The notes: generated from the sequence alone by a model not told the origin. 64,000 nt of DNA from Nitrospirota bacterium (GCA_016194305.1 JACQBW010000019.1:47204-111203); one strand, 5' to 3'; positions 4,847 through 56,672 are shown, counted from the first letter of the stretch. Translations and numbers: made by a program.

Positions 4847-5373
4847 TGAATTCTTTCAGACTTTCCTTCGCGATGGTTCCAAACCTCCTGAATGAGGCCC
4901 TTTGCATCATAGACCCTTGTTTCGCCAATCTGTTTTCCTTCCTGAAACTCCCCTTCGACTCTCACGACGCCGCTGACATAATATTCTGTGGCCCTGCCGT
5001 GCGGTTTACCCTTTTGATAGTTCCATTCTCCTTTAATTTCTCCCCCCTCATAGTATTCACGGATAACCCCCTCGCGTTTACCATTGCGATAGTTCCATTC
5101 CGACTTCAGGAAACCACTTTCGTAAAATTCCCGGCCTTTGCCTACCGGTTTTCCTCGATGATATTCGCGCTCATTTCGAAGCCGTCCTCCTGAGTAATAC
5201 CCTTTGGCCATCCCTTCCAAAATGCCGTTTTTAAACCTCAATTCACTTTTCAATTCACCTGTTTCAAAGTAGGTGCGCAATAATCCGTCCTTGCGGTCTT
5301 TCTTCCACTCCGTTTCCGATTTAATTGAACCATCCGCATAAGTTTCTCTCTTGATCGATCTATCTCGATTCAT
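4843..5373 (-). CDS. MORN-repeat (YwqK-like) protein
   Basis: 176 aa built of tandem ~23-aa repeats of the form G-x-x-x-E-W/Y-x-Y-x-N/K-G-K-x-x-G. Confidence 0.7.
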   Translation of the reverse strand: MNRDRSIKRETYADGSIKSETEWKKDRKDGLLRTYFETGELKSELRFKNGILEGMAKGYYSGGRLRNEREYHRGKPVGKGREFYESGFLKSEWNYRNGKREGVIREYYEGGEIKGEWNYQKGKPHGRATEYYVSGVVRVEGEFQEGKQIGETRVYDAKGLIQEVWNHREGKSERIQ

Positions 5374-22349: not shown

Positions 22350-23156
22350 TTAGTGGCCAGGCCTGTGAAGAGGCGATTCAAGACCATTGAATTGATTGAC
22401 GGCTCTCCTAGGAACTCGACGAATTGCAGGTGCAAGGGGCACTGCAAGATTCTTGAGCATTTTAATCTCCTTGGAATCGAGATACCGAAACATCCCTGTC
22501 GGAACGTCATTTAAATCAAGAAATGCGTATCGGGTTCTCTTGATTTTCAGAACCGGATGTCTCAATTTCAAGAGCATATTTTTAATCTGACGATTTTTAC
22601 CCTCATGAATTTTCATTTCAATCCAGGAGTTTTCTTCGGTAATGCCCAGCTTTTTTATTGAAGCCGGAGCGGTTTTTTTTCCGAACAGAACGACCCCCTC
22701 CTCCAGCTTCTTGATTTCTCCCTCTTCCAATACCCCTTTTAATTTGACCTGATAGGTTTTCTGAATTTCGCTTTTGGGATGCATCAATGCGTTGGCCAGA
22801 TCTCCGTCGTTGGTCAGCAACAAAAGACCTTCCGTATCGTAATCGAGCCTTCCAACCGGATAAACCCTCCCTTTAATTCCCTTTAATAGCGACAGGACCG
22901 TCGGACGACCTTCAGGATCACTCATCGAAGTGATATAGTTTTTAGGCTTGTTCAGTAGAATACAAACTTTGGTCTGTTTGGGATTGATCAGCTTGCCATT
23001 CACTTTGATATGATCCTGGTCTGAATCCGCCTTGCTTCCCATTTCAGTCACGACTTTGCCGTTGACGGTGACCAGGCCGCTCAGGATCAATTCTTCCGCT
23101 TTCCTTCGGGAAGTCACCCCCGATTTGGATATGATTTTCTGTAATCGTTCTAACAC
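22350..23156 (-). CDS. rluB: 23S rRNA pseudouridine synthase, RsuA/RluB family
   Basis: 268 aa. S4 domain (RLQKIISKSGVTSRRKAEELI) and catalytic GRLDYDTEGLLLLTNDG. Confidence 0.85.
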   Translation of the reverse strand: MLERLQKIISKSGVTSRRKAEELILSGLVTVNGKVVTEMGSKADSDQDHIKVNGKLINPKQTKVCILLNKPKNYITSMSDPEGRPTVLSLLKGIKGRVYPVGRLDYDTEGLLLLTNDGDLANALMHPKSEIQKTYQVKLKGVLEEGEIKKLEEGVVLFGKKTAPASIKKLGITEENSWIEMKIHEGKNRQIKNMLLKLRHPVLKIKRTRYAFLDLNDVPTGMFRYLDSKEIKMLKNLAVPLAPAIRRVPRRAVNQFNGLESPLHRPGH

Positions 23157-23322
23157 TCTTCTTTTTCCTTATATCAGACTCAGGTTAACATGCTTGCTCA
23201 AAAACTTCAGAGATCCCCTGCCGGGGACTTCCCCCATTAAACTTTTGGAGGAGGGTCGCAAGACCACAGTTCCGAAGATGACCAACATCCTTCATAAGGG
23301 CCATTCAGAAGGGGTCATATGC

Positions 23323-23422
23323 AAGGCGGAGCAAAGCCTTGTACCGGAGTGTACAATGTAAGTACATGAGGATCAAGGCTGAAGCGACAACACCGCAGAT
23401 GGCTCCTTATCAAGGGACCAAG
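23323..23422 (+). repeat. structured intergenic element, copy E
   Basis: Shares the AAGGC.. / hairpin TGTAC (23350-54) : GTACA (23362-66) / TGAGGA / ..GCGACAACACCGCAGA blocks with the other copies. An extra outer stem pairs AGCCTTG (23335-41) with CAAGGCT (23374-80). The right end abuts the guaA stop. Confidence 0.6.
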
Positions 23423-24991
23423 TTATTCCCATTCAATGGTTGCGGGTGGCTTTGAACTGATATCATAGACGACCCGGTTGACGCCTTTTACTTCATTAAT
23501 AATTCTATTCGAAAGGCTCCCAAGGAGTTCGTAAGGCAACCGGACCCAATCGGCTGTCATCCCATCCTGGCTGGTGACGGCACGAATCGCCAGTACATTT
23601 TCATAGGTTCTTTCATCACCCATCACGCCCACTGTCTTAATGGGAAGGAGAACCCCAAATGACTGCCAAATTGTCTTGTAAATCGGAAATTTTTGAACTT
23701 CGTCACTGACGATGGCATCCGCTTCCTTAAGTATTTCCAGCCGGTTCTTAGTGACCTCGCCTATGATTCGAACGGCCAACCCAGGTCCGGGAAAGGGCTG
23801 ACGCCACAAAATTTCATCCGGCACGCCCAATTCATGGCCTAACTTTCTGACTTCATCTTTAAAAAGTTCTCTGAGCGGCTCGATGATTTTGAATTTCATC
23901 TTCTTGGGAAGACCACCTACATTGTGATGGGTTTTAATTTTGGCCGACGGACCTTTAAACGAAACTGATTCGATCACGTCGGGATAAAGCGTCCCCTGAA
24001 CCAGAAACTTGACTCTGCCCACTTTCTTCAATTTTTTGGCCTCTTGCTCAAAGACCTTTATAAATTCTGTTCCAATCAGTTTTCTCTTTCTTTCCGGATC
24101 AACGATCTTTTTTAATTTCAATAGGAATCGTTTTGAGGCATCGACATACTGAAGGTTAAACTTTAAGTTATTCTTATAAGTATGTACAACTCTTTCAACT
24201 TCACCCTTTCTTAGAAGTCCATTATTGACAAAAATACAGGTCAGCTGGTTGCCCACTGCGCGATGAACGATCGAGGCCGCGACGGTCGAATCCACTCCGC
24301 CGCTTAACGCACAGATGACATGGTCATTTCCCACAAATTCCTGAATTTCCTTCGAGACTTTATGCAAAAGAGACGAGACCGTCCAGGTTGGTGAACATCC
24401 GCAGACACCGTATACAAAATTTTGAAGAATTTTGATTCCCATCGGGGTATGAGCCACTTCGGGATGAAACTGAATGCCGTAGAATCTTTTTTTGGCCTCT
24501 TTCATCGCCGCGATGGGGGAATTTTCAGTGTGCCCCGCTCTAATAAAACCCGGGGGCATTTTTTCAATCTTGTCTCCGTGGCTCATCCAGACGGTGATCA
24601 CCGAGGACAGCGTAAAGGTGGTAATATCCTTGAAAAGATCGGAAGAGTCGTCAATAAACATATCAGACTTTCCAAACTCCCTTCGGACTGACTTGATGAC
24701 TTCGCCTCCCAACACTTTGGTCATGAGTTGCATCCCATAGCAGATACCGAGTATCGGAACTTTCATGTCAAAGACGCGTTTGTCGCAAAGAGGAGATTTC
24801 GCCGTGTAAACCGAGGCCGGACCGCCCGATAGGATAATACCCTTCGGTTGAAACTCTTTTATTCTGGAATAGGGAGCGTTATAGGGGAAAATTTCGCAAT
24901 AGACACTGCTCTCCCTGATTCGACGGGCGATCAGCTGCGTGTACTGCGAACCAAAATCAAGGATAACGACCTTTTCTCGATCCTCATGCAT
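23423..24991 (-). CDS. guaA: GMP synthase (glutamine-hydrolysing)
   Basis: 522 aa. GATase domain (ILGICYGMQ), PP-loop SGGVDS, C-terminal ...KPPATIEWE. Confidence 0.95.
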
Positions 24992-28067: not shown

Positions 28068-28140
28068 GAGCCGCTAGCTCAGTTGGTAGAGCACCGCCCT
28101 TTTAAGGCGGGTGTCGTTGGTTCGAATCCAACGCGGCTCA
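28068..28140 (+). tRNA. tRNA-Lys (anticodon UUU)
   Basis: Hand-folded cloverleaf. Acceptor GAGCCGC/GCGGCTC, D-arm GCTC/GAGC, anticodon stem CCGCC/GGCGG with loop CTTTTAA, T-arm GTTGG-TTCGAAT-CCAAC, discriminator A. No encoded CCA. Confidence 0.9.
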
Positions 28141-28149
28141 TATTATATT

Positions 28150-28195
28150 TGGGGGCCCGTGAGGATTCGCAAAGCGCAATCCTCCGATGCCCCCA
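28150..28195 (+). other. strong nested stem-loop directly after tRNA-Lys
   Basis: TGGGGGC (28150-56) pairs with GCCCCCA (28189-95). GAGGATT (28161-67) pairs with AATCCTC (28178-84). An inner CGC-AAA-GCG completes the fold. Confidence 0.5.
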
Positions 28196-28257
28196 AACCG
28201 CAGATTTTTGAGCGGCTAACAGTTACACAAGCAGATTGGTCAAAAAGGTCCAGCGAC

Positions 28258-28356
28258 AAGGCCCGAGAAACGAGGCAACGCAGGCGTACTTTTCGGTACG
28301 TTGAGGAAGCCGAGATTCGAGAAAGACGTCGATGGTCCCTTTTTCAGCAATCTGCC
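28258..28356 (+). repeat. structured intergenic element, copy A (inside the tRNA-Lys/tRNA-Glu spacer)
   Basis: AAGGCCCGAGAAACGAGGCAACGCAGG, then hairpin CGTAC (28285-89) : GTACG (28296-300), then TTGAGGAAGCCGAGATTCGAGAA...TTTTTCAGCAATCTGCC. Ends 5 nt before tRNA-Glu. Confidence 0.6.
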
Positions 28357-28361
28357 ACAGG

Positions 28362-28436
28362 GTCCCCATCGTCTAGCCCGGCCCAGGACATCGCCCTTTC
28401 ACGGCGGTAACACGAGTTCAAATCTCGTTGGGGACA
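28362..28436 (+). tRNA. tRNA-Glu (anticodon UUC)
   Basis: Hand-folded. Acceptor GTCCCCA/TGGGGAC, anticodon stem TCGCC/GGCGG with loop CTTTCAC, T-arm ACGAG-TTCAAAT-CTCGT, discriminator A. No encoded CCA. Confidence 0.9.
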
Positions 28437-36371: not shown

Positions 36372-36782
36372 ATGCCAAAACAGATTACCCTTAAAGAGTC
36401 CAAGAGCATCGACATCGCTCTTCTGAAAGAACTCTATCAACATGCCCCCTGGGCCAAAGATCGTTCACTTGCTGACATCAAAAGAGCCCTCGCACAATCT
36501 ACTTTGGTGATTTCTGCATGGGAAAGGGACCTGTTGGTCGGTTTCGCACGAGTTTTGTCGGACAAAGTTTTTCGAGCAACTATCTGGGATGTCATCGTTC
36601 GTCCAGATTACCAACAAGAAGGGATCGGATCGATGATCGTTGAAAAAATCATTGCCCATCCCTCACTCAGAAACGTCGATCGGTTCTGGTTAAACACCAA
36701 ACAGCCGGAATTTTACAAAAAATTCGGTTTTGTTCCGAGCCAGGAAGCGATGCTTCTTGCCCGAAAGACAAGAATCCCTTAA
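36372..36782 (+). CDS. GNAT-family N-acetyltransferase
   Basis: 136 aa. VRPDYQQEGIGSMIV (the Q/RxxGxG/A acetyl-CoA motif) and FYKKFGF. Confidence 0.85.
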   Translation: MPKQITLKESKSIDIALLKELYQHAPWAKDRSLADIKRALAQSTLVISAWERDLLVGFARVLSDKVFRATIWDVIVRPDYQQEGIGSMIVEKIIAHPSLRNVDRFWLNTKQPEFYKKFGFVPSQEAMLLARKTRIP

Positions 36783-36854
36783 TCTGCTCAAAAAGGTTTA
36801 GATGTCGCCTGTGGAGGACTTCCACTATTGGATTAAAACTGGTCGTAGGTCGTC

Positions 36855-36949
36855 AGGCCGCAATTTTTCGAGCGACGAAGGCGTACGATTACGGTACGTT
36901 GAGAGGACTGGAAGGCGAGAACGTAACAGATAAATCTTTTTTCAGCGGA
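36855..36949 (+). repeat. structured intergenic element, copy B
   Basis: CAGGCCGC..CGAGCGACGAAGG, then hairpin CGTAC (36882-86) : GTACG (36894-98), then TTGAGAGGACTGGAAGGCGAGAACGTAACAGA..TTTTTTCAGCGG. The right end abuts the stop of the pilR-like gene. Confidence 0.55.
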
Positions 36950-38329
36950 TTACGAGGGTTGTTTGTCGATCTGGTACTTGTCGAGCCTGTACCTAAAGGA
37001 TCTGAAATTCAGATGGAGCAATTTAGCTGCCTCCGTCTTTACCCAGCGGGTCTTTTCCAGCGCCTTAATTAAAATGTCCTTTTCGACTTCTTCAATATAT
37101 TTTTCCAGATCCACTCCAGCTTCCGGAATTTCCCGAATCTTTACAGAATCCGACAACGCGATAGGACGCATGCTCGCCAATACATCTTCTTTCATGATCC
37201 TGGAATTTGAGGTGAGCGAGACAACTCTCTCAAGCATATTTTCAAGTTCTCGAACGTTTCCTTTCCACTCCTGTTCCATCAAGACATTAATCGCTTCCTG
37301 ATCAATACCGAGAAGTTGCTTATTTAAAAGCTTATTGAATTTTTTTAGAAAGAAGTCGGACAACAGCGGAATATCATCTTTTCGCTCTCTTAAAGGAGGA
37401 AGGAAAACCGGAATCACATCAAGACGGTAAAAGAGATCTTCCCGAAATGAGCTTTCGGCAACAGCTTTTACCAAATCTTTATTCGTCGCGGCGACAATCC
37501 GCACGTCAACTTTAATATCTTTCGTCCCGCCCACTCTTCTAAACTCCCTTTCCTGGAGGACTCGGAGCAGTTTGACCTGTATGGATAACGACGTATCCCC
37601 TATTTCATCCAGGAAGAGTGTTCCGCCATCCGCAATCTCGAACAGTCCCTGTTTATTCATAACGGCCCCGGTGAAAGATCCTTTCATATGTCCGAAAAGT
37701 TCGCTTTCCAGCAGGTTCTCTGGGAGAGCGCTGCAGTTTACGGTCACAAAAGGTTTTTCCCTTCGTCCCGATCTTTCGTGAATAGCACGGGCCACCAGCT
37801 CCTTTCCGGTTCCGCTCTCTCCCGTAATCAGGATATTGCTGCTGCTATCAGAGATTTTTTCGATCAAATCGAGAATTTTACTCAAAGCCTGGCTTTTTCC
37901 AACAATATTTCGTGGCGAAACCAGTTCATTCAAGGAATGGCGCAGCTGACTGTTTTCCTTGCGGAGAGACTGTTTTTCGAGCGCATTTCGAATGATCAGC
38001 TTTACCTCGTCAATTTTGAACGGTTTTATCAAATAATTGTAGGCTCCCTGCTTCATGGCCTCTATCGCGGTTTCTGTCGTCGCAAATGCAGTTATCATTA
38101 AGACAAGGGTGTCCGGAGAGACTTCTTTGACCCCTTTTAATACATCCAGGCCGCTCATTTTCGGCATCTTGATATCCGTAATGACGAGATCAAAAATGTC
38201 CTTTCCGATCTGCTGAATGGCCTCCTCACCGTCAGATGCGGTCGTCACGGCATATCCTTCGTTGGAGAGAACAATGCCCAGGAATTCCCTCATGCTTTTC
38301 TCGTCATCGACAATCAGAATTTTAGCCAA
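36950..38329 (-). CDS. pilR: sigma54-dependent response regulator (NtrC family), PilR-like by synteny
   Basis: 459 aa. REC (ILIVDDE, VITDIKMP), AAA+ with GESGTGKE and the GAFTGA-type loop (GSFTGA), and a C-terminal Fis-type HTH. Follows pilS with an 8-nt overlap. Confidence 0.8.
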   Translation of the reverse strand: MAKILIVDDEKSMREFLGIVLSNEGYAVTTASDGEEAIQQIGKDIFDLVITDIKMPKMSGLDVLKGVKEVSPDTLVLMITAFATTETAIEAMKQGAYNYLIKPFKIDEVKLIIRNALEKQSLRKENSQLRHSLNELVSPRNIVGKSQALSKILDLIEKISDSSSNILITGESGTGKELVARAIHERSGRREKPFVTVNCSALPENLLESELFGHMKGSFTGAVMNKQGLFEIADGGTLFLDEIGDTSLSIQVKLLRVLQEREFRRVGGTKDIKVDVRIVAATNKDLVKAVAESSFREDLFYRLDVIPVFLPPLRERKDDIPLLSDFFLKKFNKLLNKQLLGIDQEAINVLMEQEWKGNVRELENMLERVVSLTSNSRIMKEDVLASMRPIALSDSVKIREIPEAGVDLEKYIEEVEKDILIKALEKTRWVKTEAAKLLHLNFRSFRYRLDKYQIDKQPS

Positions 38330-42593: not shown

Positions 42594-42645
42594 GACGGAG
42601 TGTCATGAGGCTGAAACATGGCCCGTTAAATACCACCATCAGGAG
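42594..42645 (+). repeat. possible eroded copy (F) of the structured intergenic element
   Basis: GACGGAGTGT-CATGAGG-CTGAAAC resembles copy E (CCGGAGTGT[hairpin]CATGAGG..CTGAAGC) with the hairpin deleted. It also abuts a minus-strand stop, that of pilB. Confidence 0.25.
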
Positions 42646-48916: not shown

Positions 48917-49753
48917 ATGGGATCAAAAAGTCGTTTTCACCTATTAGTCCTTCTGGCATTCCTTTTTTTCCTGAACTCAATTTCCGCCGCGGCGGAAATC
49001 GGAAAAAAGTTTGAAATCACCTGGCTAGGCCAGGCGGGATTTAAAATTGTGTCACCCAGCGGAACGGTTATTCTTATTGATCCCTGGGCCAAAGGGAATA
49101 ATCTCTACCCCTACAAAAATTCGACCGGAGAACCTGATCTTTCTCCGCTTCTATCCGCCGATATCATTCTCATAACTCACGGGCATCTTGATCATTTGGG
49201 AGACACCATTCCGATTGCGAATGATCCTGGATCTAAGAAAGAGTTAAAAATAGTCTCTATTTTTGAACTCATGACTTACCTGTGGCAGGAAGGCGTCGAT
49301 CAAAAGAAACTCGTACCGATGAATATCGGGGGAAGCGTAAAGGTGAATGACGTTCAAATCACGATGGTCCGGGCGGTTCATAGTTCAGGTATCGGACCTT
49401 TTTCTCCAAAAAGTCTCACTTACGGAGGTGAAGCGGCGGGATTTATTATTGAAATGAATAACGGATTTAAAATTTATCATACAGGCGATACGGCACTTTT
49501 TGGTGAAATGAAAACCTACAATACTTACTATCATCCCAATCTGATGCTGGTTCCAATCGGAGGCGTGTATACCATGGGTCCGAAGGAGGCCGCAATGGCC
49601 GTGGAACTGGTTCACCCCCAATATGTCATCCCCATGCACTATGGTGGCACTTTTAATCTTCCCGGCACTCCCTCTGAATTTAAAACCGCTCTGAACAAAA
49701 GAGGTAAAGGAATCAAGTTGATTGTTCCCACGCCCGGCAAAGCAATTAATTAA
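48917..49753 (+). CDS. metallo-beta-lactamase-fold hydrolase, exported
   Basis: 278 aa with a signal peptide. ITHGHLDHLGD (HxHxDH) and a later HTGDT motif. Confidence 0.75.
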   Translation: MGSKSRFHLLVLLAFLFFLNSISAAAEIGKKFEITWLGQAGFKIVSPSGTVILIDPWAKGNNLYPYKNSTGEPDLSPLLSADIILITHGHLDHLGDTIPIANDPGSKKELKIVSIFELMTYLWQEGVDQKKLVPMNIGGSVKVNDVQITMVRAVHSSGIGPFSPKSLTYGGEAAGFIIEMNNGFKIYHTGDTALFGEMKTYNTYYHPNLMLVPIGGVYTMGPKEAAMAVELVHPQYVIPMHYGGTFNLPGTPSEFKTALNKRGKGIKLIVPTPGKAIN

Positions 49754-49810
49754 GTCTTTAAAGTGAACAGAAACCTATGACGTCTAAACCGAAGAGAATG
49801 GATTAGATGC

Positions 49811-49896
49811 AAGGCCGCAGGCGCGAGGCATCCGGAATGTACATCATCAGTACATGAGGATTGCCGAGTGGCGAGAACGCAGCAGATAGTCCATGA
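49811..49896 (+). repeat. structured intergenic element, copy D
   Basis: AAGGCCGCAGGCGCGAGGCA, then hairpin (A)TGTAC (49837-42) : GTACA(T) (49850-55), then GAGGATTGCCGAGTGGCGAGAACGCAGCAGA. GAGAACGCAGCAGA (49873-86) is identical to 54181-94. The right end abuts the DUF971 stop. Confidence 0.6.
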
Positions 49897-50223
49897 TCAT
49901 CGGTTGTGACTCATGCAGGATTCGCATGGGCAGATCTTCCGGAGCAGATCAAAAGAATAAATTCCGGTGGTATGCCCGTCGCTCCAGTTAATTTGAATCG
50001 CGTAATTTCCAACCGGGAAGAGGTCTTCCGGGTGAATGTCCTTCGGAATACTTTCCCGTTTAATCAGCGATTCTCCTGTCCATTCGTCAACGCATGCCGC
50101 GCATTGGCAGGAAACTCTTAAATATTCATACGAATAATCGCTCAAGTGACCATCTTCCCAGGTCATATGAATACCAACACCCCGTATATTTTTTATTTCA
50201 CTGGGTCTGATATATTCTTTCAT
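49897..50223 (-). CDS. DUF971 (gamma-butyrobetaine hydroxylase-like N-terminal domain) protein
   Basis: 108 aa. W.DGH..DYSYEYLRVSCQCAACVDEWTG and NYAIQINWSDGHTTGIYSF. ATGA overlap with hemH. Confidence 0.75.
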   Translation of the reverse strand: MKEYIRPSEIKNIRGVGIHMTWEDGHLSDYSYEYLRVSCQCAACVDEWTGESLIKRESIPKDIHPEDLFPVGNYAIQINWSDGHTTGIYSFDLLRKICPCESCMSHNR

Positions 50224-54044: not shown

Positions 54045-54119
54045 AGAGTATAACTACCTATATCCTTAAGTATTTAGTGAAAGCAAAGTTTTACAGGTTG
54101 GTCAGAAAAGTCTTTATGC

Positions 54120-54214
54120 CAGGCCACAGAATCGAGGCGACGGAGGCGTATGAGGTTATACGTTGACGAAGCCGAGATTTGAGAACGCAGCAGAAAGCAT
54201 TTCTCAGCAACCTG
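54120..54214 (+). repeat. structured intergenic element, copy C
   Basis: CAGGCCACAGAATCGAGGCGACGGAGG, then hairpin CGTAT (54147-51) : ATACG (54158-62), then TTGACGAAGCCGAGATTTGAGAACGCAGCAGAAAGCATTTCTCAGCAACCTGC. The right end abuts the stop of the 54215..54475 ORF. Confidence 0.6.
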
Positions 54215-54475
54215 CTACGGAAGTTGTTTGAGGGCGGCTTCTATGAGATCCCACAGAACCTGCCTCGTCGTCGCATGACCAAACGGATAAGCCTTTCCGG
54301 TCATTTCCTGATAAAGCTTTTTTCCCTCTTCGATGGAGAGAACCTGAGGCGCACCCCGTTCTTGAAAAAAAACCTCTTTGGCATGAAATGAAATGAGGTG
54401 GGGATAACCCCTGCTATCTTTACAAATCAAGAATTCGTTACCGGTAGAGTCCTGAATCCATAAACCTATTTTCAT
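54215..54475 (-). CDS. hypothetical 86-aa protein
   Basis: ORF only. 38-nt overlap with the upstream membrane-protein gene. No family recognised. Confidence 0.35.
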   Translation of the reverse strand: MKIGLWIQDSTGNEFLICKDSRGYPHLISFHAKEVFFQERGAPQVLSIEEGKKLYQEMTGKAYPFGHATTRQVLWDLIEAALKQLP

Positions 54476-54777: not shown

Positions 54778-55239
54778 TTATGAGCAGTAATTTTTGATAA
54801 AGCGATCGGCATGTTCTTTTTTAGTGAGTTCAGCAAGTTTTCCGGATCGACTGGCAAAAAGATGAAAGAATTCGCAGGCTTTACGGGAATTGCCAATCTT
54901 TTCATAAGCCCAGGCGGTCATAAAGAGCGGCGTATAAAGAAGAGGCCTGCCGGTAATCTCATAGTCCGATCTGAGCTCTGAAGCCTGTCGAAACAGCACA
55001 ATCGCTTCCTCAAACTTGGCTTCCGACATATCGATCATGCCCTTTCGATTTAATTCATATGCTTTTTCTACGGAATCTTCGGCGAGTCCGGTTACGGGGA
55101 TCAGACAGACAATGACCCCGTAAAGAATTTGACTTAATAAAGCTGATGATTTGAAAATAAGAGCTCCTTGACGGAAACCTCTCCTCCATCCGAAAGGAAA
55201 ATTCTCCTTCTCCCCGGGAGATAGATTTCGTCGACGCAT
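54778..55239 (-). CDS. hypothetical exported protein with TPR-like helical repeat; start uncertain
   Basis: Signal-like ILYGVIVCLIPVTGLA, then an AYELNRKGM...FEEAIVLFRQA...AWAYEKIGN helical hairpin. The ORF-track ATG at 55239 overlaps the upstream gene by 106 nt, and no canonical internal start is seen. Confidence 0.4.
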   Translation of the reverse strand: MRRRNLSPGEKENFPFGWRRGFRQGALIFKSSALLSQILYGVIVCLIPVTGLAEDSVEKAYELNRKGMIDMSEAKFEEAIVLFRQASELRSDYEITGRPLLYTPLFMTAWAYEKIGNSRKACEFFHLFASRSGKLAELTKKEHADRFIKNYCS

Positions 55240-55805
55240 TTCGGGTCATCATTAAAACTTTCAACCTGTTTTAAATCCCCCTTTGGCGTAAAATAATAGA
55301 CCACATAGCGGGTATTCAGGTATTTTCCATCAGAAGTTTTGATCGAATCCTGGATATTAATCGTAAAACGAACAGGACCCATATTCCGATTAATCTGGAG
55401 GATCCGATTCTCTTTTATTCGGTATCGCGTGTTCAGACCATCTCCATGAATTCGGACGAGCTGCCCAAGTGGATGTAAATCGAACTCTCCTAAGCTCAAT
55501 GAATGCTTTCCGTCACCGGCATCAAAGAGACGGTAAGCCCTATGGACCGCCATCATTCCAATCTGTCCTTCTGCCCATTTTCCAGCCTCCATGTCACTCA
55601 GCAGGACTTTAACTTGATCAGGAAGCTGAACTTCGGCCCTCCCTTTATACGATTTTCCGTTTAGAATAACTTCAAGATCGGAGGAAAAACCTTTAAAACC
55701 TTTCTCCCAGCGATAGGTTGTTTCGTAAGCCCCTTTCAGGAGATTCCGAGCCTCGGGTTGATCGGGCGGAATAGCTCCTTCTTCTCCATTTCCGGCATTA
55801 TTCAT
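55134..55805 (-). CDS. hypothetical protein (~223 aa), divergent from the CbbQ-like gene
   Basis: Start moved to ATG 55805, preceded by AAGGGAGG. Soluble and beta-rich by composition. I half-recall a cyanobacterial DUF family but cannot support that. Confidence 0.5.
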   Translation of the reverse strand: MNNAGNGEEGAIPPDQPEARNLLKGAYETTYRWEKGFKGFSSDLEVILNGKSYKGRAEVQLPDQVKVLLSDMEAGKWAEGQIGMMAVHRAYRLFDAGDGKHSLSLGEFDLHPLGQLVRIHGDGLNTRYRIKENRILQINRNMGPVRFTINIQDSIKTSDGKYLNTRYVVYYFTPKGDLKQVESFNDDPKCVDEIYLPGRRRIFLSDGGEVSVKELLFSNHQLY

Positions 55806-55828
55806 TTTCAATCCTCCCTTTTTGGGCC

Positions 55829-55858
55829 TTGTCAGGCAAAAAGTTACTATGCTATATT
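55829..55858 (+). promoter_or_regulatory. candidate sigma70 promoter for the CbbQ/NorQ-like gene
   Basis: TTGTCA (55829-34), 18-nt spacer, TATATT (55853-58), about 32 nt upstream of the GTG at 55890. Confidence 0.4.
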
Positions 55859-55889
55859 TAAAAACTGAAATCAACTCTTAAAGAACGAG

Positions 55890-56672
55890 GTGCCCATTTC
55901 CAGCGAACCCTATTATCTCCCTACCGGCGACGAAGCACTTCTCTTTAAGATCGCCTTTCATTCCAAGATTCCTGTCATCCTAAAGGGCCCTACCGGATGC
56001 GGAAAAAGCCGATTTGTCGAATTTATGGCCCATCAGCTCAAAGTCCCGCTGATTACAGTTTCCTGCCATGAAGATCTTACCGCTTCCGACCTGGTTGGGA
56101 GATATCTCCTGAAAGGGAGCGAAACCGTCTGGATGGACGGTCCTCTCACGACTGCAGTAAAAGAAGGAGGCCTCTGCTATCTTGATGAAATTGTCGAGGC
56201 CAGAAAAGATACAACCGTGGTGATACATCCTCTGTCGGACAGCAGACGTCTGCTTCCGATTGAAAAAAGAGGGAGCGTTCTCGAAGCCCACCCTCAATTT
56301 ATGCTTGTTCTTTCCTACAATCCCGGGTATCAAAGCGTTTTAAAAGAATTGAAACAGAGTACAAAGCAAAGATTTCTCGCTTTGGAATTTAACTATCCCC
56401 TGTTTGAACAGGAGGTAGAAATTATCAGGCACGAGGCTGAAATTAAGGATGAACTGGCCAAGAAACTGGTCAAAATAGGCCACAAGATCCGAAACCTTAA
56501 GAACCAAGGCCTTGATGAGGGCGTCAGTACCCGTCTTCTGATCTACGCCGGCACTCTGATTCGAAATGGTATTGAGCCTCTACTCGCCTGCAGAACCGCA
56601 TTAGGTCAACCGGTCACCGACGACCCTGAAATGCAAAAGAGTATCGCAGAAATTGTATCTGCCATACTATGA
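55890..56672 (+). CDS. CbbQ/NorQ/NirQ-family (MoxR-class) AAA+ ATPase
   Basis: 260 aa with a GTG start. [10 protein letters not shown].., Walker [17 protein letters not shown], Walker [17 protein letters not shown]. Size and motifs match CbbQ/NorQ. Confidence 0.85.

Follow-up and report, generated by a model that had tools for sequence, protein, structure and literature searches.

Correia elements duplicate a TA dinucleotide and, from the reviews and to our knowledge, are described only from Neisseria; we know of no enzyme identified since 1988 as mobilising them. They are intergenic, lie beside genes and, once transcribed, fold into a long RNA hairpin (PMC10969869, PMC5039591). Effects on mRNA ends are documented for Correia elements, involving RNase III, and for ERIC sequences, where orientation-dependent effects on mRNA stability via RNase E were reported (PMC10969869). 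A 64,000-nt stretch of a Nitrospirota bacterium (assembly GCA_016194305.1, JACQBW010000019.1, positions 47204-111203; here called the window) was found to carry five copies of a palindromic repeat, designated A to E, and one truncated copy. An earlier note made from the sequence alone had described the repeat as an intergenic element with a covarying hairpin that belonged to no recognised family. It is probably a high-copy, non-coding, non-autonomous mobile element of the miniature inverted-repeat transposable element (MITE) kind, and a distant relative of the Neisseria Correia elements.

The five repeats are all on the + strand, copy A at 23296-23422, copy B at 28231-28355, copy C at 36782-36950 (a long form of 169 nt, with a model match at 36824-36953), copy D at 49784-49908 (structured part about 49794-49898) and copy E at 54093-54215. 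They were recovered at the places reported before and align mutually at about 60-65% identity. A covariance model built from them, R1, was run with filters off so that every position of the window was scored, and gave 98-123 bits (98.8, 123.3, 97.6, 105.6 and 118.4 bits for A to E), while a later family-wide covariance model, R2, gave 53, 103.7, 74.2 and 93.9 bits for A, B, D and E. As the next unrelated match in the window scored 11.5 bits, and no full-length match beyond the five copies was found there, an eroded sixth copy proposed at 42594-42645 is not supported; this segment gave no model match even at E ≤ 10. The degenerate core pattern AGGC-N21-RYGTAY-N6/7-RTACRT-N17/18-GASAAM matched four of the five copies and had no match in 100 dinucleotide shuffles (0.00 expected), which excludes chance. 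The 14-nt identity between 49873-49886 and 54181-54194 was correctly reported, and the length of about 95 nt was too short: the element measures about 125 nt, its outer stems covarying too.

The core pattern was scanned over genome contigs, one genome per species. The matches listed, in at least 120 stretches, came overwhelmingly from metagenome-assembled genomes (MAGs) of Nitrospira, Nitrospirota or Nitrospiraceae, with a minority labelled delta proteobacterium, Desulfobacteraceae, Desulfuromonadales, Syntrophorhabdales, Thermodesulfobacteriota, Gammaproteobacteria or Acidobacteria; divergent subfamilies were present in MAGs labelled Desulfobacterota, delta- and gammaproteobacteria. R1 returned 100 matches, of up to 97 bits, in the first 80 of these loci and R2 about 60 more in the remaining 40, giving at least about 160 copies beyond the window. 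As a control, R2 gave 3 matches only in 795 kb around guaA of unrelated bacteria. The 75-nt core could be aligned across phyla at 50-120 bits, and the element is near-identical between Nitrospira species (consensus GCAGGATGCTCAAAAAGGCCGTCCAGCAAGGCCGCAGCGAGCGAAGAGGCGAGGCGTACGCTTCGGTACGTTGAGCCTCTGACGATGCGAGAACGCCGCTGGCGGACTTTTTCAGCATCCTGC). Several MAGs supply many loci, with up to four copies in a single 8-kb block; the density, about one copy per 13-25 kb, extrapolates to an estimated one to a few hundred copies in each genome. In Rfam 15, the window at the gathering threshold gave two tRNAs only, copy B (E ≤ 10) gave nothing relevant and eight diverse loci (E ≤ 0.01) gave nothing, in keeping with the statement that this is no known RNA family. 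Among viral sequences there was one pattern match, without model confirmation, and BLAST found no match on plasmids. A literature search found no description of a Nitrospira MITE or REP family, and the core string in no paper. The element is a real and abundant palindromic mobile repeat of Nitrospirota and some other lineages, undescribed as far as could be found.

Each copy consists of one imperfect hairpin of about 120-125 nt (117-130 nt), with long forms of 169-210 nt; some copies carry an extra left module of 45-80 nt, at the start of which the left inverted repeat occurs a second time. The terminal inverted repeats form outer stems of 17-27 bp, for example GCAGGATGCTCAAAAAGG / CTTTTTCAGCATCCTGC. 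When the window copies were folded with their flanks, these stems were found to vary from copy to copy yet still to pair, and helices 1-3 are 88-96% paired. Three variants of the apical stem were indeed present, TGTAC/GTACA at 23323 and 49811, CGTAC/GTACG at 28258 and 36855, and CGTAT/ATACG at 54120. RNAalifold on the five copies gave 32 pairs, 18 of them with compensatory changes. In an alignment of 100 sequences, 88.4% of the cells were standard pairs, against 34-50% with the 3' partners slid by 1-3 columns, both-sided changes occurred in 27 of the 32 pairs, and none of 500 shuffles reached any observed measure, which bears out the claim of a dispersed family with a genuinely covarying hairpin. 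Size variants also occur in Nitrospira: in some the apex is replaced by an insert, giving 170-199 nt (locus L032, 7432-7630; L034, 7140-7309), and another form, which recurs at about 169 nt, is lengthened between core and terminal repeats, with repeat pairs about 169 nt apart (L031, L033, L054, L071, L094, L101 and L113). These variants recall the insertion variants described for ERIC and Correia.

The ends of the element point to insertion at TA. Of 58 Nitrospira-type copies, 43 have TA directly after the right end, and of 19 long forms of about 205 nt, 16 have it before the outer-left end (GCAGGCTGCGGAAAAAC...). Subfamilies with unrelated terminal repeats are TA-flanked as well, as in TA/CCAAGTTG...CAACTTGG/TA and TTA/GAAGTGGTT...AACCACTTC/TAG, where slashes mark the element ends. 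The first and last bases of the element are usually G/C or A/T, so that a stop codon is rebuilt on the TA (TA+G or TA+A). By crude calls of open reading frames (ORFs), about 20 ORFs on the opposite strand overlap the right end by 1 nt at their stop, and about 12 co-oriented ORFs finish some 75 nt upstream of the hairpin, where the long form has its left end; the stop codon at these junctions consists of TA and the terminal G (or A) of the element, as seen on one side of copy E and on both sides of copy C. In the window, four right ends abut or overlap minus-strand stop codons, as had been observed, namely those of guaA, a sigma-54 response regulator gene, a DUF971/GBBH-like_N gene and an 86-aa ORF. 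Since TA flanks with a terminal G or A rebuild TAG or TAA, this contact needs no function in an untranslated region (UTR).

Orthologous sites were found both filled and empty. In a Nitrospiria MAG with flanks 65-75% identical to the window (L019), a copy at about 5170-5307 lies between DUF3386 and CbbQ-like genes; the counterpart in the window, 55875-55889, is an empty 15-nt spacer between the divergent DUF3386 gene (55134-55874, -) and a CbbQ/NirQ-like AAA gene (55890-56672, +). Locus L010 reads ...CTGTA/GCAGG... where its orthologue L119 reads ...CTGTAA, and the likeness of the flanks stops exactly at the TA of the stop codon. L066 and L054 form a further filled/empty pair, and a second sweep of the Nitrospira loci gave no more. 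A search for orthologues of the window species with an empty site gave metagenome GuaA relatives of 67% identity at best, and the exact-protein look-up returned the same species only (exact GuaA match in the NCBI MAG GCA_016178565.1). The element has several features of a MITE, being shorter than about 300 bp and non-coding, with terminal inverted repeats, many dispersed copies and filled/empty polymorphism, and the remark that it was not recognisable as a REP or MITE family does not stand: it behaves like a MITE, and R2 picks out the Correia elements of Neisseria. It sits at gene ends, in operon spacers and between tRNAs, with hairpin potential in either orientation.

The two strands of the hairpin are not equivalent. 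As the G.T pairs had suggested, RNAfold found the + strand stabler in all five window copies, by 1.6-12 kcal/mol, with z between -3.6 and -4.1 on this strand in four of the five, and the same strand was the better folder in 26 of 27 representative sequences, by a mean of 8.3 kcal/mol. In 22 representatives of less than 70% identity, G.T pairs were in about five-fold excess over A.C (74 against 14); three blocks only are conserved in this set, GC.AGGC, GAGGCGTAC-N6-GTACGT.GAG and CGAGAACG, and the stems vary freely. Mutual information disclosed, outside the helix model, a loop pair at positions 32/90 that changes between C:G and G:C. Its partners are the final C of AAGGCC and the central G of GAGAAC, replaced by G and C in other subfamilies (AGGCG ... 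GACAAC), with weighted counts of 14.1 and 9.4 and exceptions of 1.5. As the two loop strands are not mutual reverse complements, symmetric recognition of two DNA ends cannot explain this covariation, and a folded single strand, RNA or DNA, can. To judge from their sequence, the strands beside the apex may face each other as GA/GA or GGA/GAG, typical tandem purine pairs.

Such a core is what would be expected of a structured non-coding RNA family, either small RNA genes or cis-acting 3'-UTR or processing elements, functional from the + strand and multiplied by duplication and not by transposition. The very strong covariation, the G.U-type excess and greater stability on one strand, the covarying pair in a conserved non-palindromic internal loop and the tandem G.A motifs beside the apex all speak for this explanation, as do the position of copy B within a + strand tRNA operon and the persistence of an element between guaA and rluB in a distant relative, described below. 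Its difficulties lie in the TA-flanked ends that regenerate stop codons, the sites that are filled or empty, the near-identity of copies across Nitrospira species, a density of one copy per 13-25 kb, the lack of an Rfam match and the orientation of the copies. Among about 80 copies with callable neighbours, orientation relative to genes was random: 24 lay in the direction of two tandem genes and 24 against it, 20 between convergent and 10 between divergent genes. The proposals of a + strand RNA or of a 3'-UTR element read from the minus strand are both unsupported by these tandem contexts and by the GC skew on the element strand, positive in 38 cases and negative in 49, which is not significant. 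That all copies share one orientation holds within the window and does not hold for the family; GC skew in the window is negative and all its copies are on +, a pattern with a chance of about 1 in 8 by our calculation and therefore probably accidental. An orientation that depends on the replication strand was rejected, as the family shows no GC-skew bias.

No conserved promoter or terminator was detected around the copies by eye and by scans. TGGCAC-like and AGAATAAC-like strings were noticed by eye in the upstream module, their spacing fits neither the sigma-54 nor the sigma-70 consensus, and the scan was at background, so that a promoter of either type is not supported in this module. The element has no coding capacity. 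Copies A, D and E contain a 16-codon ATG...TGA frame (23320-23370, 49808-49858 and 54117-54167) encoding MQGGAKPCTGVYNVST, MQGRRREASGMYIIST and MPGHRIEATEAYEVIR, and in copies B and C the start codon is absent or in another frame. These frames probably arise incidentally from the conserved strings ATGCAAGG and GTAC(A/G)T(T)GA. A small peptide gene was rejected, the frame being absent from B and C, the peptides unconserved and the frame shifted in Nitrospira copies; because 1-nt indels occur in compensating arm pairs no reading frame is kept, as the earlier note had held. On balance, the RNA explanation is improbable.

The same strand asymmetry could be that of a single-strand-DNA mobile hairpin of the REP/REPIN-RAYT or IS200/IS605-derived (PATE) kind, of which an HUH tyrosine enzyme would read the folded core on one strand and move the element. 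The better fold is consistently that of one strand, conservation lies in the structured core while the terminal repeats are free to change, the loop pair covaries and no DDE-type parent was found, all as this explanation would have it. IS200/IS605 families, however, insert beside a one-sided target without duplication, and the element has TA on both flanks; GC skew is unbiased (38 against 49), and an element of 125-205 nt with terminal inverted repeats of 17-27 bp is not a REP of 20-40 nt. An origin of this kind is thus distinctly unlikely.

The relation of the hairpin to transcription termination was also considered. In the family consensus, for the Nitrospira and window lineages, A5 and T5 tracts flank a G+C-rich stem base, and in the consensus and copies B and C a T5-T6 tract directly follows the G+C-rich inner stem, pairs with the A-tract and is followed by 12 more paired bases. 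The T-tract is absent from copies A and D, and one subfamily (L035) has its T-tract 5' and its A-tract 3'. The statement that there is no U-tract was therefore partly right, failing for the family consensus and for copies B and C, which keep T5-T6. A simple terminator scan was at background level. Many copies lie in apparent operons, and many separate a stop codon from the ribosome-binding site of a following gene, 6-53 nt away; for this reason, and with the reversed tract polarity of one subfamily, strong termination is unlikely. Locally evolved bidirectional terminators or mRNA-stabilising hairpins that are merely alike, neither mobile nor homologous, would suit the A5 and T5 tracts and the many copies at gene ends, and are barely credible given the sequence homology among copies, with a core that aligns across phyla, the copies placed where a strong terminator would be harmful, the reversed tracts of L035 and the terminator scan.

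The link with Correia elements was examined in a 40-kb stretch of N. gonorrhoeae holding exactly four of them. With filters off and both strands searched, R2 ranked these elements 1st, 2nd, 4th and 5th, at 19.5, 15.7, 12.9 and 12.8 bits (E 4e-4 to 0.1). All four were matched with CAAGGCG on the 5' side, and their opposite strands were below the reporting limit. The R2 alignment skips the centre of the Correia element, which by eye shares GTAC-N5-GTACG and CGAGG..CAACGC with the family. The terminal inverted repeats of the Correia copies read here begin with TA. Two PLSDB entries of Neisseria gonorrhoeae (NZ_CP119140.1 and NZ_CP119142.1), 2.17-Mb replicons filed as plasmids, are evidently chromosomes and served as a source of Correia elements.

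Several observations weigh against a Correia-related MITE. The R2 scores on which the Correia link rests are weak, with roughly calibrated E-values and a contribution from generic hairpin and A/T-tract features, and a plain terminator-like hairpin with A and T tracts scored 13.2 bits in the same search. Searching with a Correia hidden Markov model (HMM) in nhmmer found no family member. The terminal repeats are unrelated, those of Correia (26 bp) reading TATAG(C/T)GGATTAAC(A5 or ATTTAAA)... and those of the family GCAGGATGCTCAAAAAGG or other variants. Because of these repeats, the null HMM search and the score of the plain hairpin, homology is plausible and not proven; Correia is the closest known relative, and the element is not filed as Correia. 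No transposase or autonomous parent was found within inverted-repeat pairs 0.3-3 kb apart, in a small sample of about 0.9 Mb, where the enclosed ORFs encode pentapeptide-repeat, YkuD, cytochrome c, RecR and cytidylyltransferase proteins; as noted before, there is no transposase nearby in the window either. The terminal repeats differ between subfamilies and the central core is conserved, the reverse of what would be predicted for a transposase binding at the terminal repeats. Copies A, B and D of the window are without clear TA flanks, and no filled/empty pair was similar enough for both junctions to be read and the empty site to show a single TA, so that duplication of TA is deduced and was not seen directly. 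Finally, an element is seemingly retained between guaA and rluB in metagenome locus L126 (contig Ga0335082_10006061, 9393-9678), the GuaA of which is 65% identical to that of the window. The spacer there keeps the left module (GCTCAAAAAGCTCCAGATGCCCCCTCCGGGGACTTCC) and the core, and both the gene order guaB-guaA-element-rluB-aspS and the orientation of the element are those of the window, where by alignment its counterpart is the truncated copy at 23188-23286 and not copy A. This could reflect selection or long retention, or repeated insertion at a favoured site, rather than plain selfish turnover.

With these points weighed, the preferred interpretation is that of a selfish insertion of low harm, which regenerates stop codons and has a folded core maintained by the needs of its own propagation or by a host factor. 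Integration would target TA and duplicate it, and stop codons would be the main harmless TA targets, which would explain the frequent contact with stop codons from either side. Once inserted, the element would be co-transcribed with its neighbours in either orientation and would fold into a long hairpin. The + strand as written would be the strand selected to fold, presenting purine-rich asymmetric loops CAAGGCC/CGAGAAC with the covarying C:G, and putative tandem G.A pairs by the GCGUAC...GUACGU apex. As the core is conserved across subfamilies with wholly different terminal repeats, a protein that reads the folded core is suggested; candidates are the mobilising enzyme and a host protein, either a nuclease or one that binds RNA. 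If Correia and ERIC are a guide, stabilisation by a 3'-end hairpin, cleavage or weak termination might be expected to affect neighbouring genes, and such secondary effects on mRNA ends would resemble those involving RNase III and RNase E, respectively. A bolder proposal, tentative and in our view doubtful, is that the core of about 75 nt, with its asymmetric purine-rich loops and their covarying pair, the tandem G.A and the GCGUAC...GUACGU apex, is a single-strand-folded recognition module common to the family and to Correia. It would define a cross-phylum superfamily of hairpin MITEs in which a mobilising enzyme or host partner responds to structure and core motif and disregards the terminal repeats.

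Copy A lies between an rluB-like gene (22350-23156, -) and guaA (23423-24991, -), and its 3' end adjoins the guaA stop codon at 23423-23425, the C-terminus and stop of guaA having been read directly; it folds at -46.4 kcal/mol on + (z -4.1) and -38.8 on -. Directly upstream is the truncated extra copy (23188-23286, +), which the earlier note did not list and which was missed as a full copy by R1 in the window scan. It comprises a left module (GCTCAAAAACTTCAGAGATCCCCTGCCGGGGACTTCC) together with half a hairpin, from the 5' side (GGGTCGCAAGACCACAGTTCCGAAGATGACC), and was recognised because it aligns with the L126 element and with the 5' half of the long form that is copy C. Copy B occupies the spacer between tRNA-Lys (28068-28140, +) and tRNA-Glu (28362-28436, +), retains the A5 and T5 tracts at the stem base, pairs its outer stem as GCAGATTGGTCAAAAAGG / CCTTTTTCAGCAATCTGC and folds at -46.5 kcal/mol (z -3.6). 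It is flanked by CACAA (28226-28230) and CACAG (28356-28360), which may be a 4-nt direct repeat, unlike the TA elsewhere. Between tRNA-Lys and copy B there is a strong separate hairpin at 28148-28197 (TTTGGGGGC...GAGGATTCGCAAAGCGCAATCCTC...GCCCCCAAA; -36.8 kcal/mol, z -5.0), followed by GCAGATTTTTGAGCGGC, which resembles an inverted fragment of the terminal repeat of the element.

Copy C opens with the outer-left inverted repeat ATCTGCTCAAAAAGG, which duplicates the left repeat, continues with a left module and the hairpin, and ends in ...CTTTTTTCAGCGGAT. It exactly fills the gap from the TAA of a GNAT gene (36780-36782, +) to the TAA of the convergent sigma-54 response regulator gene (36950-36952, -), its terminal bases being common to both stop codons; the segment 36780-36953 folds at -54.6 kcal/mol on + (z -3.1), with the outer repeats paired, and at -36.6 on -. 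Copy D, the one named at the head of the earlier note, has on its left an MBL-fold hydrolase gene (48917-49753, +) and on its right the DUF971/GBBH-like_N gene (49897-50223, -) (Pfam), the stop codon of which (49897-49899) is inside the 3' arm of the element; it folds at -41.7 kcal/mol on + (z -3.75) and -29.6 on -. Copy E has TA at both sides, ttTA/CAGGTTGG...CAACCTGC/TA, and the TAG stop of the 86-aa minus-strand ORF (54215-54475) consists of TA and the complement of the last base of the copy, which folds at -46.0 kcal/mol (z -4.05).

Nitrospira are the main nitrite oxidisers and the complete nitrifiers. An element placed at their stop codons and in operon spacers and tRNA gaps is likely to shape mRNA ends and processing, breaks in MAG assembly and the calling of gene 3' ends. 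It combines the behaviour of a mobile element with structural conservation of the grade of a functional RNA, seen in strand-specific wobble pairs and a covarying asymmetric-loop pair. If the link with Correia is true, a family so far described from Neisseria would widen to several phyla and a comparative route to the Correia mobilisation machinery would be opened; if there is a superfamily with a shared core, the enzyme behind Correia could be findable by phylogenetic profiling across Nitrospirota, Desulfobacterota and Neisseria.

Of the other systems with which the element may be compared, integron attC sites do not agree with it: they flank short promoterless cassettes in one orientation, whereas no R''/L''-L'/R' boxes (RYYYAAC...GTTRRRY) were found at its ends, its neighbours are housekeeping genes and tRNAs 5-13 kb apart, and the orientation of the family is random. 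REP and REPIN sequences are likewise high-copy extragenic palindromes of conserved structure, vertically persistent and probably recognised as folded single strands. However, REPs measure 20-40 nt and have neither TA flanks nor long terminal inverted repeats, so that the size and flanks of the family do not fit, and they are tied to a RAYT gene, of which none was seen here, no systematic RAYT/TnpA search having been made. The SPRITE-type MITEs of Streptococcus pneumoniae are, by description, small mobile repeats at gene ends with a hairpin and T-tract (for these and terminator-like MITE features, PMC10969869, PMC3049150), whereas the T-tract of the family is buried in the 3' arm and absent from several subfamilies.

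ERIC (IRU) sequences resemble the element as imperfect palindromes of about 127 bp that are intergenic and transcribed, with a core conserved across genera and variants with internal insertions; by eye they share the short blocks AAGGCG, GGAGCNTAC..GTANGTGA and AACGCAGC with the family. In local alignment the best score was no better than shuffles, with a mean-score z of about 2.5. Homology with ERIC was rejected, an E. coli ERIC copy being missed by BLAST, R1, R2 and the family HMM.

Correia elements differ from the family, beyond the terminal repeats, in the central insert of about 50 nt of their long forms, absent from the family, which has extra internal stems and an optional left module, and in their hosts, Neisseria against Nitrospirota and Desulfobacterota-type MAGs. 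Both are non-coding palindromic repeats of about 100-155 nt that have terminal inverted repeats and number over 100 in each genome; in both, an A-tract and a T-tract lie immediately within these repeats, and the blocks CAAGGCG .. CGCAG .. GTAC-N5/6-GTACG .. CGAGG .. CAACGC follow by eye in the same order. The element of the window is best described as a member of a new, Correia-like family of the MITE kind with an unusually well conserved, strand-specific folded core.

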